Source of the DNA: Eubacteriales bacterium
GTDB lineage: Bacteria; Bacillota; Clostridia; Oscillospirales; SIG627
Length of the DNA stretch: 60,460 nucleotides
Assembly (NCBI GenBank): GCA_045594565.1
Contig: JAZNYT010000121.1
Coordinates: 1-60,460 of the forward strand
Direction of reading: 5' to 3'
Each line of letters starts with the position of its first letter. The stretch's first letter is position 1. Positions 38,575 through 43,020 of the stretch are shown here, in pieces. Made by a program: the position numbers and the translations under genes. The notes beneath the pieces were generated by a model. That model saw only the letters and a list, made by a program, of their open reading frames with translations. It was not told the DNA's origin and made no database searches.

Positions 38575-38931
38575 GTGCACTATTTGTGCTCGACGTTCGC
38601 AAAAAAAATGTCCTGAACCGACTTTCCAAAAAAAGATGCTATTTTAATCTTGATTTCATCACGAGGATTTCTTTCTCCTCTTTCGTACATAGCCCAAGAA
38701 GACTTCGTTATTCCTAAACTATTTGCAATTTGTTCCTGTGTTTTGTCCGCTCTCAAATCTCTTAGAATGTTGCTACTCATTTTATCTCTCCTTTCGTGCA
38801 CTATCTGTGCTCTTTATCCACATTATACACACATAGTGCTTGTTTGTCAATAGGTTTTTTGAGTTTTTTTGAAATTTATGCACTTTTTGTGCAAATAATT
38901 GATTGACAAGTACACATTTTGTGTATATAAT
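38575..38931. promoter_or_regulatory. cI/cro switch: divergent promoters and five CAC-N5-GTG operators
   Basis: TTGACA-17-TATAAT on both strands (38850-38822 minus, 38903-38931 plus); operators at about 38577, 38798, 38828, 38880, 38913. Confidence 0.8.
38580..38780 (-). CDS. Cro-like HTH protein
   Basis: TQEQIANSLGITKSSWAMYERG; RBS AAAGGAG before the ATG at 38780. Confidence 0.88.
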   Translation of the reverse strand: MSSNILRDLRADKTQEQIANSLGITKSSWAMYERGERNPRDEIKIKIASFFGKSVQDIFFANVEHK

Positions 38932-38959
38932 ATACTTAAAGATTATGAGGAGTTTTACT

Positions 38960-39280
38960 ATGTCAAAGTTTTCTGAAAGGTTAAAACTTTTAAGAGCTGA
39001 AGCTAATCTTTCTCAATCAGAACTTGCAAAAGTTATCGGTATTTCTAAAAGTAGTATAAATATGTACGAACGAGGAGAAAGAGAACCAGGGCTTGATACT
39101 ATTGAGATAATGGCACACTATTTCAATGTAGATATGAATTACATTATAGGAACAAGTGATATTAAACTTTCGGACTCCTCGCTCGACAATGAATTCTTGC
39201 AAATTCTATCTAACCTCTCTGATGAAGATAAAGAATGGCTCCTCGACGTTATAAAATCTGTTATTGATAAAAGAAAATAA
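38960..39280 (+). CDS. CI-like repressor (no peptidase domain)
   Basis: LSQSELAKVIGISKSSINMYERGEREP; divergent from cro. Confidence 0.88.
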   Translation: MSKFSERLKLLRAEANLSQSELAKVIGISKSSINMYERGEREPGLDTIEIMAHYFNVDMNYIIGTSDIKLSDSSLDNEFLQILSNLSDEDKEWLLDVIKSVIDKRK

Positions 39281-39319
39281 AAAATCCCTCTCTTGCCGAA
39301 GCAAAAGAGGGTGGTACTT

Positions 39320-39709
39320 TTATTTTATACTTATTTTCTGAGTGTCGAAGGTGGGAGCTAAAATTAGGGTACCAAACGGACATAAATTTGTGATTTCGGA
39401 AATTAACAGGGAAACTTTTGATAAAATTGCAGTTAATTTGAATTTATCATTTCTTATCGCTTCAATTAAATTTTCTTTTGAGATATTCTCTTCTGATTCT
39501 ATAATTACTTCATAGCCTATTTTTACAAAAGAGTTTGTGTTTTCGCCAAAAGACAGCTCTCTGTTAAAATTAAAAATTGCTTTATTTGCGTCAATTTCAC
39601 ATATATCAATACTATCAATTACTGCTAAGGAAATTGATTTTATATCAGGTTTTATGAAATTGTATTGGACACTTTTAAGTGTGTGGTTAATTATTCTATA
39701 GTTATTCAT
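39320..39709 (-). CDS. SecB-like chaperone (predicted)
   Basis: Four beta-strand then two-helix pattern ending ISEITNLCPFGTLILAPTF; ATGA-coupled to hicB. Confidence 0.65.
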   Translation of the reverse strand: MNNYRIINHTLKSVQYNFIKPDIKSISLAVIDSIDICEIDANKAIFNFNRELSFGENTNSFVKIGYEVIIESEENISKENLIEAIRNDKFKLTAILSKVSLLISEITNLCPFGTLILAPTFDTQKISIK

Positions 39710-40200
39710 ATTGTTTCTCCTTCGGTGATTAAGTTGAATGTAGTTTTTATATCATCCCACATATATTGATTCAACTGTGCGTTGCATTGTTGTAATTCTA
39801 AACTACTGTCTGCAACCATTTTCAAGTCGTCGATTTTTTTATTGATGTTCATATCAAATGTTTTTGTTCCAATATAATTTTCAATAGCACTAACGAGGAG
39901 TGTATTTATGCTTACTCCTTCAGCATCTGACATTTCGGCGATTTTTCTATGTGTTGACTTTGAAATTCTCAATGCAATTTTTCCGCTATAATCATCTTTG
40001 AAATCTTCATTGGGTATTTTTCTGCACTCATCTTTCAAAAACTCAAGATATATTTCTAAGTTTTCCTGAGCTTCGTTCATGGCTTCTTCGGGAGTATCTC
40101 CGCCACCTATGCAGCCGGGAATAGAGGGGAACGTCGCGGTCCAGTATGCTGTGCCGTCATCTGCTTTTTTCGGAAACACTCTCATTTCATAGTTTTTCAT
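39706..40200 (-). CDS. hicB: HicB antitoxin with ~50-aa C-terminal extension
   Basis: FPSIPGC...GDTPEEA, YSGKIALRI..STHRKIA...EGVSIN (RHH). Confidence 0.9.
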   Translation of the reverse strand: MKNYEMRVFPKKADDGTAYWTATFPSIPGCIGGGDTPEEAMNEAQENLEIYLEFLKDECRKIPNEDFKDDYSGKIALRISKSTHRKIAEMSDAEGVSINTLLVSAIENYIGTKTFDMNINKKIDDLKMVADSSLELQQCNAQLNQYMWDDIKTTFNLITEGETI

Positions 40201-40204
40201 TTTA

Positions 40205-40453
40205 TCACCTTTCTATTTCTTCTATTTTCTCCCTAATCATGTCAATATATGCAGGTTTAACAGGTTTATGCATAGGTATATTAAGCATAATGGTCTCTTC
40301 CTGCGTTGGATACTCATAGATAAAATGACTTCCGGTTGTCCTTTTTAATTTGAATCCGTAATGTCTTAAAAAATTTTGCAACTCATTTGGCTGTATATCT
40401 TTTGCCGTTGGTGTTTTCTTGATTTTTTCCAGCATGTTGTCATATGTTCCCAT
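40205..40453 (-). CDS. hicA: HicA mRNA-interferase toxin
   Basis: GF...TTGSHFIY...IPMHKPVKPAYI. Confidence 0.9.
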   Translation of the reverse strand: MGTYDNMLEKIKKTPTAKDIQPNELQNFLRHYGFKLKRTTGSHFIYEYPTQEETIMLNIPMHKPVKPAYIDMIREKIEEIER

Positions 40454-40478
40454 TATTTTCCCGCTTCACCTCACCTTG

Positions 40479-40529
40479 TGATATCGTATATGATATCATT
40501 ATTATACATAATGCATACAAATTTGTCAA
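40479..40529 (-). promoter_or_regulatory. hicA promoter and operator
   Basis: TTGACA-17-TATAAT; TGATATC-N6-GATATCA palindrome just downstream. Confidence 0.8.
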
Positions 40530-40699
40530 GTCCTCTTGTAAATATAAAAAGCCCTCAGATTTTGTCACCTTCCGATGGTGGAAAGACTACTCTCTGAGAG
40601 CGAATAAACTTTACGCATGTATTTTACACTAAAAACATTTTTTGTCAAGCATAAATACCATTTTGCCGACGTTGGCAAAATGGTAAAAAAGAAAAGAGC

Positions 40700-40816
40700 T
40701 TAACGCCCTTCTCCTTTGTGATTTGCCTTTTGCTCGAGTTTTTTAAGTACTTCTTTTTTCTCACGCTCTGTCAGAGTCTTCCAAAGTGTGAGAATTTGCA
40801 CATCCTGTTTTTTCAC
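40700..40816 (-). CDS. Micro-ORF, 38 aa ([13 protein letters not shown] family)
   Basis: AAGGCGGTG RBS, GTG start: [30 protein letters not shown]... Confidence 0.65.
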   Translation of the reverse strand: MKKQDVQILTLWKTLTEREKKEVLKKLEQKANHKGEGR

Positions 40817-41065: not shown

Positions 41066-41902
41066 ATGGATAACTTAATAGAATACAGTGAACAGACCTT
41101 TGAAGGTATTAAACACATAAATGAATATGGTGAAGAGTATTGGCTTGCACGAGAATTGCAAGGCGTTCTCGAATATTCCAGATGGGAAAATTTTAACAAA
41201 GCCGTAGAGCGAGCTAAAAAAGCATGTAAAAATACCGGCTTCGATATCCAAGACCATTTTCGTGAAGTCACGAAAATGGTTTCGTTGGGCTCTGGTGCAG
41301 AAAGAGAAATTGACGATGTAATGCTGTCTCGCTACGCATGCTATTTAATCGTAATGAACGGAGACCCAAGCAAAGAAATAATCGCAATAGGGCAAACATA
41401 TTTTGCAGTTAAAACTCGTCAGCAAGAATTGATTGAAAATTATGAGGAGCTGACAGAAGACCAAAAGCGACTTGCTATCCGTAGTGAAATGAAGACACAC
41501 AATAAGTCTTTGGCAGAAGCTGCACACAATGCAGGTGTTAAAGAGCCTATGGATTTTGCAATTTTTCAAAATTATGGATATATGGGTCTTTACGGCGGGC
41601 TGAAGGCTCAGGATATAAAAGAGAAAAAAGGGCTTAAAAAGAGTCATGACATTCTCGATTATATGGGCAGTACAGAGTTGGCGGCGAACCTCTTCCGTGC
41701 TACACAGACCGATGAGAAACTTAGACGAGAGAATATAGTCGGAAAAGAAAAGGCAAATGCAACTCATTATGAAGTTGGTCAAAAGGTAAGAAAGACTATT
41801 AAGGAATTAGGCGGAACAATGCCCGAGGACTTACCCGTTCCCGATAAAAGCATAAAACAAATTGAAAGCGAAGAAAAGCGAAAATTAAAAGAGAGAAAAT
41901 AA
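41066..41902 (+). CDS. dinD: DinD-like DNA-damage-inducible (BRO-N) protein
   Basis: WLARELQ.LEYS.WENF, LSRYACYLI.MNGDP.K, MGSTELAANLFR. Confidence 0.88.
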   Translation: MDNLIEYSEQTFEGIKHINEYGEEYWLARELQGVLEYSRWENFNKAVERAKKACKNTGFDIQDHFREVTKMVSLGSGAEREIDDVMLSRYACYLIVMNGDPSKEIIAIGQTYFAVKTRQQELIENYEELTEDQKRLAIRSEMKTHNKSLAEAAHNAGVKEPMDFAIFQNYGYMGLYGGLKAQDIKEKKGLKKSHDILDYMGSTELAANLFRATQTDEKLRRENIVGKEKANATHYEVGQKVRKTIKELGGTMPEDLPVPDKSIKQIESEEKRKLKERK

Positions 41903-41945
41903 AATTCCTCTCTTGCTGACGCAAAAGAGGAGAAAGGAGAACATT

Positions 41946-42941
41946 ATGACAAGACGCTCTGACGGATTATGGCAAGAGGCTATGACCATAAACGGAAAAA
42001 GAAAATACTTTTATGGCAAAACCAAAGCCGACGTTCTGAAGAAGATAAAAAACTTCGAAGAACAGCAGGAAGGCGGAATACTGTTCTCCGAAGTAGCAGA
42101 GGATTGGTGGGAGGAACATTCCGAAAAGGTAGTTCACTCTACGATGCACGGATATCATGCACGTTTTGTTTATGCTGTTGAAACCTTCAAGGACAGATAC
42201 ATAAAGGATATTACCGCACAGGAAATAGCAAATTTACTTAAAGCCCTGCAGCTTAAAAAGTATTCGCAAAAGGTAATATCCACACAGCTCAACGTTATCA
42301 ATATGATTTTTAATAAAGCAATTATAAACGGAGACATAATGCACAATCCTTGTTCTGCCGTTCAGCTCCCCAAAGGACTCCCTAAGAAAAAAAGAGAGCT
42401 CCCCACCGACATTGATTTTGAAATAGTGGAGAACAGTGATTGGCTACTCCCTTTCTTCCTTCTCTATACCGGCTGCAGACGTGGTGAATCACTTGCAGTA
42501 ACGTATGAGGATATCGACTGGGAGAAGAAAATTATTCACATCAATAAAGCCGTTGGCTTTAAGGAAAATAAACCATACATTAAATCAACAAAAACCGAAG
42601 CAGGTTTCAGAGACGTTGTTCTTCTTGACAAGCTTGCCGAAAGACTTGACAAGTCAAAGACGGGTCTTATCTTCCCAAACAACAAGGGGGAGATGTGGCA
42701 CGACTCAATGCTTACAAGAAAATGGAAGCAGTGGCAAAGAAGAAATAACACGACTGTTACCGCACATCAACTACGACACGGTTACGCTACTATTCTATTT
42801 GAGGCAGGTCTTGAGGCAAAGGATGCACAGTACCTTTTGGGACACAGTACGATAGCAATGACGCAGGATATTTACACTCATATCAGACAAGCGAGACAGA
42901 AAGAATATGCGTCAAAATTGAACGATTTTTTCAACAAATAA
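41946..42941 (+). CDS. Tyrosine integrase
   Basis: TGCRRGE, HQLRH, LGHS..MTQDIYTH. Confidence 0.95.
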   Translation: MTRRSDGLWQEAMTINGKRKYFYGKTKADVLKKIKNFEEQQEGGILFSEVAEDWWEEHSEKVVHSTMHGYHARFVYAVETFKDRYIKDITAQEIANLLKALQLKKYSQKVISTQLNVINMIFNKAIINGDIMHNPCSAVQLPKGLPKKKRELPTDIDFEIVENSDWLLPFFLLYTGCRRGESLAVTYEDIDWEKKIIHINKAVGFKENKPYIKSTKTEAGFRDVVLLDKLAERLDKSKTGLIFPNNKGEMWHDSMLTRKWKQWQRRNNTTVTAHQLRHGYATILFEAGLEAKDAQYLLGHSTIAMTQDIYTHIRQARQKEYASKLNDFFNK

Positions 42942-42994
42942 TGTAAAAATGATGTAGTAGGCTTGATTTAGCCTTATATACGGCATTTTATTGG

Positions 42995-43020
42995 GGGTTC
43001 GAATCCCATCACTCACCCCA
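42995..43020 (+). other. att core at the phage-host junction (attR-type)
   Basis: Same tRNA 3' fragment as 103-128, followed by host terminator; T-stem not fully paired, so not a full tRNA. Confidence 0.85.

Follow-up and report, generated by a model that had tools for sequence, protein, structure and literature searches.

A HicA-HicB toxin-antitoxin operon with a putative dedicated chaperone of predicted SecB fold in the lysogeny module of a clostridial prophage

The contig JAZNYT010000121.1 of an Eubacteriales bacterium from the cattle gut (assembly GCA_045594565.1; Clostridia, Oscillospirales), whose entire 60,460 nucleotides are referred to here as the window, carries on its minus strand a hicA toxin gene, a hicB antitoxin gene and a third gene whose product is predicted to adopt the fold of the chaperone SecB. 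We consider it probable that these genes form a self-contained operon of the toxin-antitoxin-chaperone (TAC) type, which a temperate phage carries as an AT-rich moron in its lysogeny module, between a cI-like repressor gene and the Bro and integrase genes. Confidence is highest, and indeed strong, that the three parts constitute one module and that its helper has the SecB fold. That the module works by chaperone addiction is the reading we favour on the combined evidence of its architecture, the fold of the third protein and the link between this protein and a C-terminal tail on HicB. That it defends against phages is suggested by context and by analogy, and is put forward tentatively.

The third protein

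The third gene (39320-39709, minus strand) encodes a protein of 129 amino acids (aa), a SecB-fold protein of an unannotated family and a candidate dedicated chaperone. Its ATG overlaps the TGA of hicB by 4 nt (ATGA), and a GGAG lies 8 nt upstream. The protein has no match in the Pfam, NCBIfam, PADLOC or PHROG hidden Markov model (HMM) libraries, and a word-indexed protein search returned only a match to itself. Exhaustive searching with HMMER recovered a family of 52 cluster representatives (50% clustering), 118-149 aa long and 26-48% identical, in which R50 and S100 are invariant.

An AlphaFold2 (AF2) model of the third protein, calculated from an alignment of 53 sequences, has a predicted local distance difference test score (pLDDT) of 93.3 and a predicted template modelling score (pTM) of 0.86, all five models lying at pLDDT 92-93; it comprises four antiparallel strands followed by two helices, and its C-terminal loop is ordered. 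When compared with the PDB using Foldseek, the top 23 matches are all SecB (Haemophilus influenzae and Escherichia coli), Rv1957-ChAD from Mycobacterium tuberculosis (ChAD, chaperone addiction domain) or two Firmicute SecB-fold proteins. The matches to SecB and Rv1957 fall between E 3.5e-5 and 1e-3, with template modelling (TM) scores of 0.56-0.66, while the next fold, that of hotdog thioesterases, appears at E>0.03 and TM ~0.3. Among viral models, the best Foldseek matches are two phage proteins annotated as SecB (E 2e-6, TM 0.67). An earlier reading of this DNA, made without database searches and referred to below as the sequence-only reading, had proposed a SecB-like third protein from its pattern of strands and helices; the model bears this out, its structural matches being confined to SecB, Rv1957-ChAD of M. 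tuberculosis and the SecBs of phages. The SecB fold is that of a holdase. The window's protein is about 25 residues shorter than SecB (129 against ~155 aa), being without the C-terminal helix and tail region of the latter. As a prediction the SecB fold is well supported, while sequence homology to SecB is unproven.

It had also been supposed that Clostridia generally lack SecB, and this holds; there is no PF02556 SecB in the host genome (2.02 Mb, 91% complete), and PF02556 occurs in 15 of 300 genomes of the host's class. Some PF02556-type genes of the class belong to triads with a HigB/RelE-like toxin and a helix-turn-helix (HTH) antitoxin, that is, to classical TACs (L103:1492-2747, L113:540-1827 and L107:902-1854; surveyed loci are given by L-number and coordinates throughout). 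Others are solitary, such as that beside secE-nusG at L104:856-1872. The identification of the third protein as a housekeeping SecB was rejected, since its family is present in just 11 of 399 genomes of the class and has no PF02556 match.

Solitary homologues of the third gene (129-131 aa, E 1e-12 to 1e-15) are found in one genus with genomes of 0.8-1.0 Mb. There is no hicAB near any of these loci (L011:1504-1893, L012:1480-1869, L013:1498-1893, L016:1448-1840 and L017:1510-1899), and in three of the five genomes the gene adjoins gltX. They may represent a housekeeping form of the third protein's SecB-fold lineage. The SecBs of TACs likewise have solitary SecB relatives, and solitary SecB-like proteins are known in Firmicutes (PMC3581621).

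At L008:3397-3804 a third gene (E 1.3e-45 to the family) was missed by the public gene call, which reports a 78-aa antisense open reading frame (ORF) in its place; this family is easily lost by annotation pipelines.

The toxin, the antitoxin and its tail

The product of hicA (40205-40453, minus strand) is an 82-aa RNase toxin of the HicA family. It matches PF07927 with 32.9 bits (cut-off 27; E=6.9e-8) and phrog_353 'toxin' with E=2.3e-9, and its G-S-H motif occupies residues 40-42 (TGSHFIY). In HicA toxins generally, the catalytic His of this motif belongs to a dsRBD-like fold. The window's HicA is identified by its sequence matches, and a phmmer search of the PDB returned no HicA match. The antitoxin gene hicB (39706-40200, minus strand) encodes 164 aa, comprising an N-terminal HicB domain of the partial RNase-H-like type (PF15919, residues 14-65), a ribbon-helix-helix (RHH) domain (PF05534, residues 59-105) and a C-terminal tail of 52 aa. 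With Foldseek, the AF2 model of HicB matches the solved HicBs 6g26, 6hpb and 4p7d (Burkholderia pseudomallei, E. coli and Yersinia pestis). The latter are 135-150 aa in length, and the window's HicB runs 52 residues beyond the RHH. HicA and HicB are bona fide members of their families, and RNase toxicity of the one, and neutralisation and autorepression by the other, are expected to follow from what is known of these families. In a divergent triad beside phage terminase genes (L014:720-977), the HicA-like protein has G-S-R in place of the catalytic G-S-H.

The tail (residues 113-164, encoded at 39709-39864, minus strand) is the candidate chaperone-addiction segment, and is predicted to be an amphipathic helix with a conserved Trp. 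In the AF2 model it forms a single helix over residues 114-160, with pLDDT ~90 over 121-150. Residues spaced at i, i+3/4 make up one conserved stripe along it, namely I119, I123, L126, A130, L134, Q137, A141, Q145 and W148 (consensus numbering), and an aromatic segment, QYMWDDIKTTFNL, corresponds to HicB residues 143-155 and places Y144, W146 and F153 in the tail. Tails of 48-68 aa are present in all 27 distinct triads, with Trp at the aligned position in most, and every HicB homologue of 160-168 aa (42-72% identity) has kept the tail, which is absent from two-component HicBs. The ChADs described to date are intrinsically disordered regions whose aromatic residues mediate binding, the bound form being extended or beta (PMC6377645; bioRxiv 10.1101/2024.02.24.581848). 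The sequence-only reading had pointed to some 50 extra residues after the RHH, ending in an aromatic segment, and had taken these for a chaperone-addiction tail. The extension and its aromatic segment are real; the Trp kept in most tails parallels the ChADs, and the predicted helix is at odds with the disorder of the known ones.

Linkage of the tail to the third gene

A survey of hicAB loci followed by a third gene had been suggested on the basis of the sequence-only reading. Our survey covered 80 metagenome loci, 58 loci from named genomes and further loci from whole-genome searches. ORFs were called in each and scored with two HMMs, one for the HicB core and one for the third-gene family; the contingency set consists of those distinct HicBs, 106 in number, that are followed by 420 nt or more of DNA. 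Where the HicB tail has at least 40 aa (n=63), it is followed by a member of the third-gene family in 24 cases, by another coupled ORF of at least 80 aa in 29, and by neither in 10. Where the tail is shorter than 15 aa (n=41), the corresponding counts are 0, 3 and 38, and the remaining two HicBs have tails of 15-39 aa. Both the family itself (24/63 with long tails against 0/41 with short tails; Fisher p=7e-7) and any coupled third gene (53/63 against 3/41; p=1.3e-15) are associated with a long tail, so that across the 106 HicBs the tail is tightly linked to a coupled third gene.

The same association is seen at closer range. All 11 Clostridia loci in the named-genome survey, with HicB tails of 49-54 aa, have a member of the family at -30 to +2 nt, and the third gene is present behind every close metagenomic HicB for which there is downstream DNA. 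Even the most distant family members that were checked (P0090, P0102 and P0107) follow a HicB of 169-170 aa or a fragment of a HicB tail. Gene order is conserved in the 27 distinct triads, and we rejected the possibility that the third gene is an unrelated hitchhiker on grounds of this strict synteny. Among these triads the mean distances are 0.72 for the tail, 0.69 for the third gene and 0.45 for the HicB core. With the core removed, tail distances remain correlated with third-gene distances (partial r 0.63; permutation p=5e-4), as against 0.35 for the core given the tail; this is suggestive of a functional tie, and no proof of one.

Long-tailed HicBs from Proteobacteria and other phyla (L021, L033-L070, L125-L137) precede coupled third genes of other, mutually unrelated families, examples of which are found at L058:2940-3206, L053:3061-3507 and L039:1985-2329. 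Family X (82-111 aa, 24 loci) has the motif KKQGIHEGxW...VDAAxVNP, family Y (106-114 aa) occurs at 3 loci, and family Z (143-176 aa, 7 loci) has a weak match to DUF6941. None of the three has a PDB match or similarity to the window's third-gene family.

Operon structure and regulation

The three genes follow the order toxin, antitoxin, chaperone, with a gap of 4 nt between hicA and hicB, and share a single promoter and a single terminator. The promoter, TTGACA-17-TATAAT (40501-40529, minus strand), is of the sigma-70 type and agrees with the consensus at 12 of 12 positions. Directly after the -10 element, and over the likely transcription start, lie two palindromic TGATATCA boxes arranged as TGATATCA-N4-TGATATCA (40479-40498, 20 bp), which an inverted-repeat search reports as TGATATCGTA/TATGATATCA. 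The palindrome occurs once in the window, where none would be expected from shuffled sequence. It is found at the same position in at least 10 homologous loci with unrelated upstream flanks, and the -35 and -10 elements are likewise kept in homologous loci despite differing flanks. At L018 both boxes have changed in concert, each reading TGGTATCA. We presume that this operator is the binding site of the HicB RHH; conserved twin boxes and paired changes fit a dimer-of-dimers RHH repressor and the autoregulation known for HicB (Gerdes 2023, class 4).

Transcription would end at an intrinsic terminator (39286-39311, minus strand), a stem of 11 bp with 6 GC pairs followed by a run of T, which is common to the operon and the convergent cI-like gene. 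A second terminator upstream (40656-40685, minus strand; 12-bp stem) insulates the operon from a preceding micro-ORF. The latter, a 38-aa ORF at 40700-40816, lies some 250 nt upstream of hicA with the terminator between them, and is outside the operon.

Promoter, operator and triad recur together in loci where HicB is only 29-72%, and the third gene 45-48%, identical to those of the window, and because they recur in loci so diverged the architecture must be more than chance. The promoter, palindrome, hicA, hicB and coupled third gene described in the sequence-only reading are all present on the minus strand where it had placed them.

Proposed mechanism and alternative explanations

In proposing how the module might work, we suppose that HicB dimers bind TGATATCA-N4-TGATATCA and so repress their own operon, and that HicB uses its N-terminal domain to block the RNase HicA. 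Its tail of 52 residues would render HicB unstable or prone to aggregation unless held by the SecB-fold protein. Should an infecting phage, for instance, supply a protein that titrates this helper, or should synthesis of the helper stop, HicB would be lost; HicA would then cleave RNA and arrest the cell, and the outcome would be either an aborted superinfection or the punishment of prophage loss. A role against phages is suggested by the position beside cI in a prophage, by the SIR2 and HerA neighbourhood at L002 and by the phage contexts of L014 and L015. The triad is also found at plain chromosomal sites and beside transposases, and must therefore be regarded as a mobile module, for which addiction or stabilisation is an equally possible role.

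Several observations weigh against this interpretation. A search of all 53 members of the third-gene family for PF02556 came back empty at E<=1, as did a search of the PDB with the family profile at E<=10, and hhalign gives a probability of 6%, which is not significant, for the family against Clostridial PF02556 proteins; since there is no sequence-level homology to SecB, the SecB assignment rests on predicted structure. The predicted tail is a confident helix of 47 residues, unlike the disordered ChADs, and could be a coiled-coil oligomerisation element. Solitary homologues show that the third-gene family can work without HicAB, and a mirror-tree correlation such as that between tail and third gene can arise merely because both evolve fast. 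With regard to defence, there are triads at non-phage chromosomal sites and there is no PADLOC model for the system, and defence is one possible role only.

The only stretch that hhalign did align consists of a helix and the loop 'S-P-F-G-x-I-I-T-P-P' ('PxxLxPP'), which falls opposite 'FPY..R..I..LT...G..P..LP' in SecB. In Rv1957, the loop after helix alpha1 belongs to the ChAD-binding spot (PMC6377645).

The alternative that best survives is that the three genes are a functional unit in which the SecB-fold protein is no stabilising chaperone. The tail would be a coiled-coil or docking helix, and the third protein might serve as co-repressor, as a sensor for the release of HicA or as a means of adjusting the ratio of HicA to HicB. 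We think this unlikely. In its favour, the predicted tail is a confident amphipathic helix with one conserved stripe and is not disordered, and long-tailed HicBs of other phyla occur with at least three third-gene families unlike SecB and unlike the family of the window, so that the tail may be a general docking module. However, the sole characterised role of the SecB fold in connection with toxin-antitoxin (TA) systems is the chaperoning of antitoxin tails, in operons with the same gene order (PMC5105189, PMC6377645), and the conserved Trp of the tail parallels the dependence of ChADs on aromatic residues. The tail itself may unfold on the chaperone, dock as a helix or be a coiled coil.

It is far less probable that Clostridia use the third protein as a general holdase or export helper resembling SecB and that its gene merely accompanies hicAB, which would then be an ordinary two-component addiction system stabilising the prophage. 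Homologues that stand alone in five genomes of one genus, beside gltX in three of them, would accord with such a role, as would the solitary SecB-like proteins known from Firmicutes (PMC3581621). Yet outside that genus, wherever the upstream DNA of a family member can be read, a long-tailed HicB precedes it by 0-32 nt, usually with an overlap at the hicB stop codon, the third gene is never found behind a tail-less HicB, and the protein is without the C-terminal helix and tail region of SecB. Least probable of all is that AF2 has produced the fold in error and that the third ORF encodes a small protein that is unrelated to SecB and folds otherwise; the model is a single AF2 prediction from 53 sequences with no support at the sequence level, but all five of its versions reach pLDDT 92-93 with pTM 0.86, two independent structure libraries top out in SecB types with a large gap to the next fold, and the one stretch aligned by hhalign is the equivalent helix-loop motif.

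Returning to chaperone addiction, a more speculative extension, which we regard as doubtful, is that the third protein founds a Clostridia-specific lineage of SecB-fold chaperones outside PF02556; one genus with small genomes would have inherited solitary copies vertically, and another branch would be mobile and dedicated to HicAB. The client would be a conserved amphipathic helix and not a disordered ChAD, and the pairing of an antitoxin tail with a dedicated keeper protein might be general, with the SecB-TACs as its first case. Tail and keeper may constitute a general design principle because long HicB tails pair with further, unrelated third-gene families, at least four in number. If true, a helical client would represent a different structural mode of chaperone addiction.

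Relation to known systems

To our knowledge, all characterised TACs come from Proteobacteria and mycobacteria, and all have SecBs of the PF02556 type. TACs are among the few defence-type modules with an understood phage sensor, this being the chaperone, which is titrated by phage proteins. HicAB-type TACs were predicted by Sala 2013 (PMC3581621), who also list a Firmicute TAC from Caldicellulosiruptor, and one of them, Mmet-TAC, was validated by Bordes 2016 (PMC5105189). Mmet-TAC from Methylomonas methanica MC09 (HicA Metme_2813, HicB Metme_2812 and a SecB-TA; PMC5105189) has the same order of toxin, antitoxin and chaperone, a HicAB pair with a HicB of the RHH type (Sala 2013), a C-terminal extension of ~40-50 residues on the antitoxin (ChAD 119-159 in Mmet; 113-164 in the window) and a SecB-fold third protein. 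Its chaperone, however, was found by sequence similarity to SecB and Rv1957, whereas the window's protein has no PF02556 signal. The window cassette also differs in its host, a monoderm gut Clostridia without a housekeeping SecB, in its prophage site and in its tail, which is predicted to be helical; it is described here from sequence and predicted structures.

The HigBAC system of M. tuberculosis (Rv1955-1957; 5MTW; Guillet et al. 2019, PMC6377645) provides the second-best structural match to the third protein (5mtw, E 4.7e-5, TMq 0.66). There too, in concept, a SecB-like tetramer is dedicated to holding the tail of an antitoxin, but the pair is HigBA, the disordered ChAD is bound in extended form through Trp and Arg, and sequence identity is 10-12%. 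HigBAC and CmdTAC from E. coli prophages (bioRxiv 10.1101/2024.02.24.581848; Nature 2024, PMC11618068) are prophage morons, and HigBAC occupies a variable locus beside cI, analogous to the position of the window cassette. In these systems the chaperone is a sensor of phage proteins, and they are the template for the antiphage role proposed here. Their toxins are different (HigB and the ADP-ribosyltransferase CmdT), their SecBs are of the PF02556 type, and defence was shown experimentally for them while the role of the window cassette is suggested by analogy.

Two-component HicAB systems with an RHH-type HicB (class 4, Gerdes 2023, bioRxiv 10.1101/2023.12.08.570793; 6g26, 6hpb and 4p7d) comprise the same families and have a palindromic operator in the promoter, but their HicBs, unlike that of the window, end shortly after the DNA-binding domain, and there is no third gene. 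Across the 14 HicA contexts surveyed by Gerdes, neither a chaperone nor a tripartite form is mentioned (bioRxiv 10.1101/2023.12.08.570793). Solitary SecB-fold proteins of Firmicutes, namely SP1558 of Streptococcus pneumoniae (2hng) and a protein of Streptococcus agalactiae (2o2a), are structural matches at E 1e-4 to 2.5e-4; they also come from monoderms, but they have no TA link and no detectable sequence similarity to the window's protein.

The sequence-only reading had taken the locus for an antiphage HicAB TAC of a kind uncharacterised in this lineage. The TAC-type architecture stands; the claim that the kind is new falls, HicAB TACs having been described and validated; and the antiphage role comes from context and analogy. 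The class of HicAB-SecB TACs is already known, and what sets the window cassette apart is that its chaperone belongs to a lineage outside PF02556 and that its tail is predicted to be one long helix. In the literature searched, neither the third-gene chaperone family nor a tripartite HicAB in Clostridia is described. The window cassette shows this architecture in gut Clostridia and in their prophages, and its chaperone lineage has escaped both annotation pipelines and the published surveys of TACs and HicA; the number of TACs in Gram-positive gut bacteria is consequently probably underestimated. With a tail predicted to be helical and the invariant residues R50 and S100 in the helper, the cassette offers a compact setting for experiments on the encoding of chaperone addiction.

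Prophage context and distribution

The operon converges on a cI-like HTH repressor gene (38903-39280, plus strand; PF01381 E=2.4e-18). As a long ORF starting with TTG, this gene contains a promoter agreeing with the consensus at 12 of 12 positions (38903-38931), and its real start is probably an ATG near 38960, ~57 nt downstream (MSKFSERLK...). The lysogeny module continues with cro (38580-38801, minus strand), beyond which are genes for an excisionase-like HTH protein, a YqaJ exonuclease and RecT. On the other side of the operon are a Bro-N protein (41066-41902, plus strand; PF02498 E=6e-13) and a tyrosine integrase (41913-42941, plus strand; PF00589 E=3.7e-22) that marks the end of the prophage. 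An exact repeat of 128 bp links window positions 1-128 with 42893-43020, which cover the 3' end of the integrase gene and a tRNA-like 3' part; this is compatible with either a duplicated att site or an assembly that ran through phage DNA in circular or tandem form, and on the strength of this repeat the phage spans approximately the first 43 kb of the window. GC content drops to 29-32% across the third gene, while the phage replication genes have 43-46%, a difference typical of a moron.

Nearly identical DNA is found mainly in bovine and other gut metagenome runs, all runs listed being of DNA. A phage GenBank collection gave no DNA match to the operon, and IMG/VR one distant HicB locus only. 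The closest named relatives of HicB belong to uncultured Acutalibacteraceae, Oscillospiraceae and 'Clostridia bacterium' metagenome-assembled genomes from ruminant, rabbit and human guts. The triad recurs in gut Clostridia at both prophage and non-prophage sites, and also beside transposases. At L014 and L015 it lies beside phage terminase and structural genes, and at L002 it is 2 kb from genes for SIR2 (SIR2_2) and a DUF87/HerA-like ATPase (L002:1-1793). The triad appears to border a variable spot resembling a defence island. L001-L004 share the triad and downstream genes for GNAT and RNase Y but differ upstream, where L001 has a kinase and a metallo-beta-lactamase-fold protein with a weak match to Apyc1.

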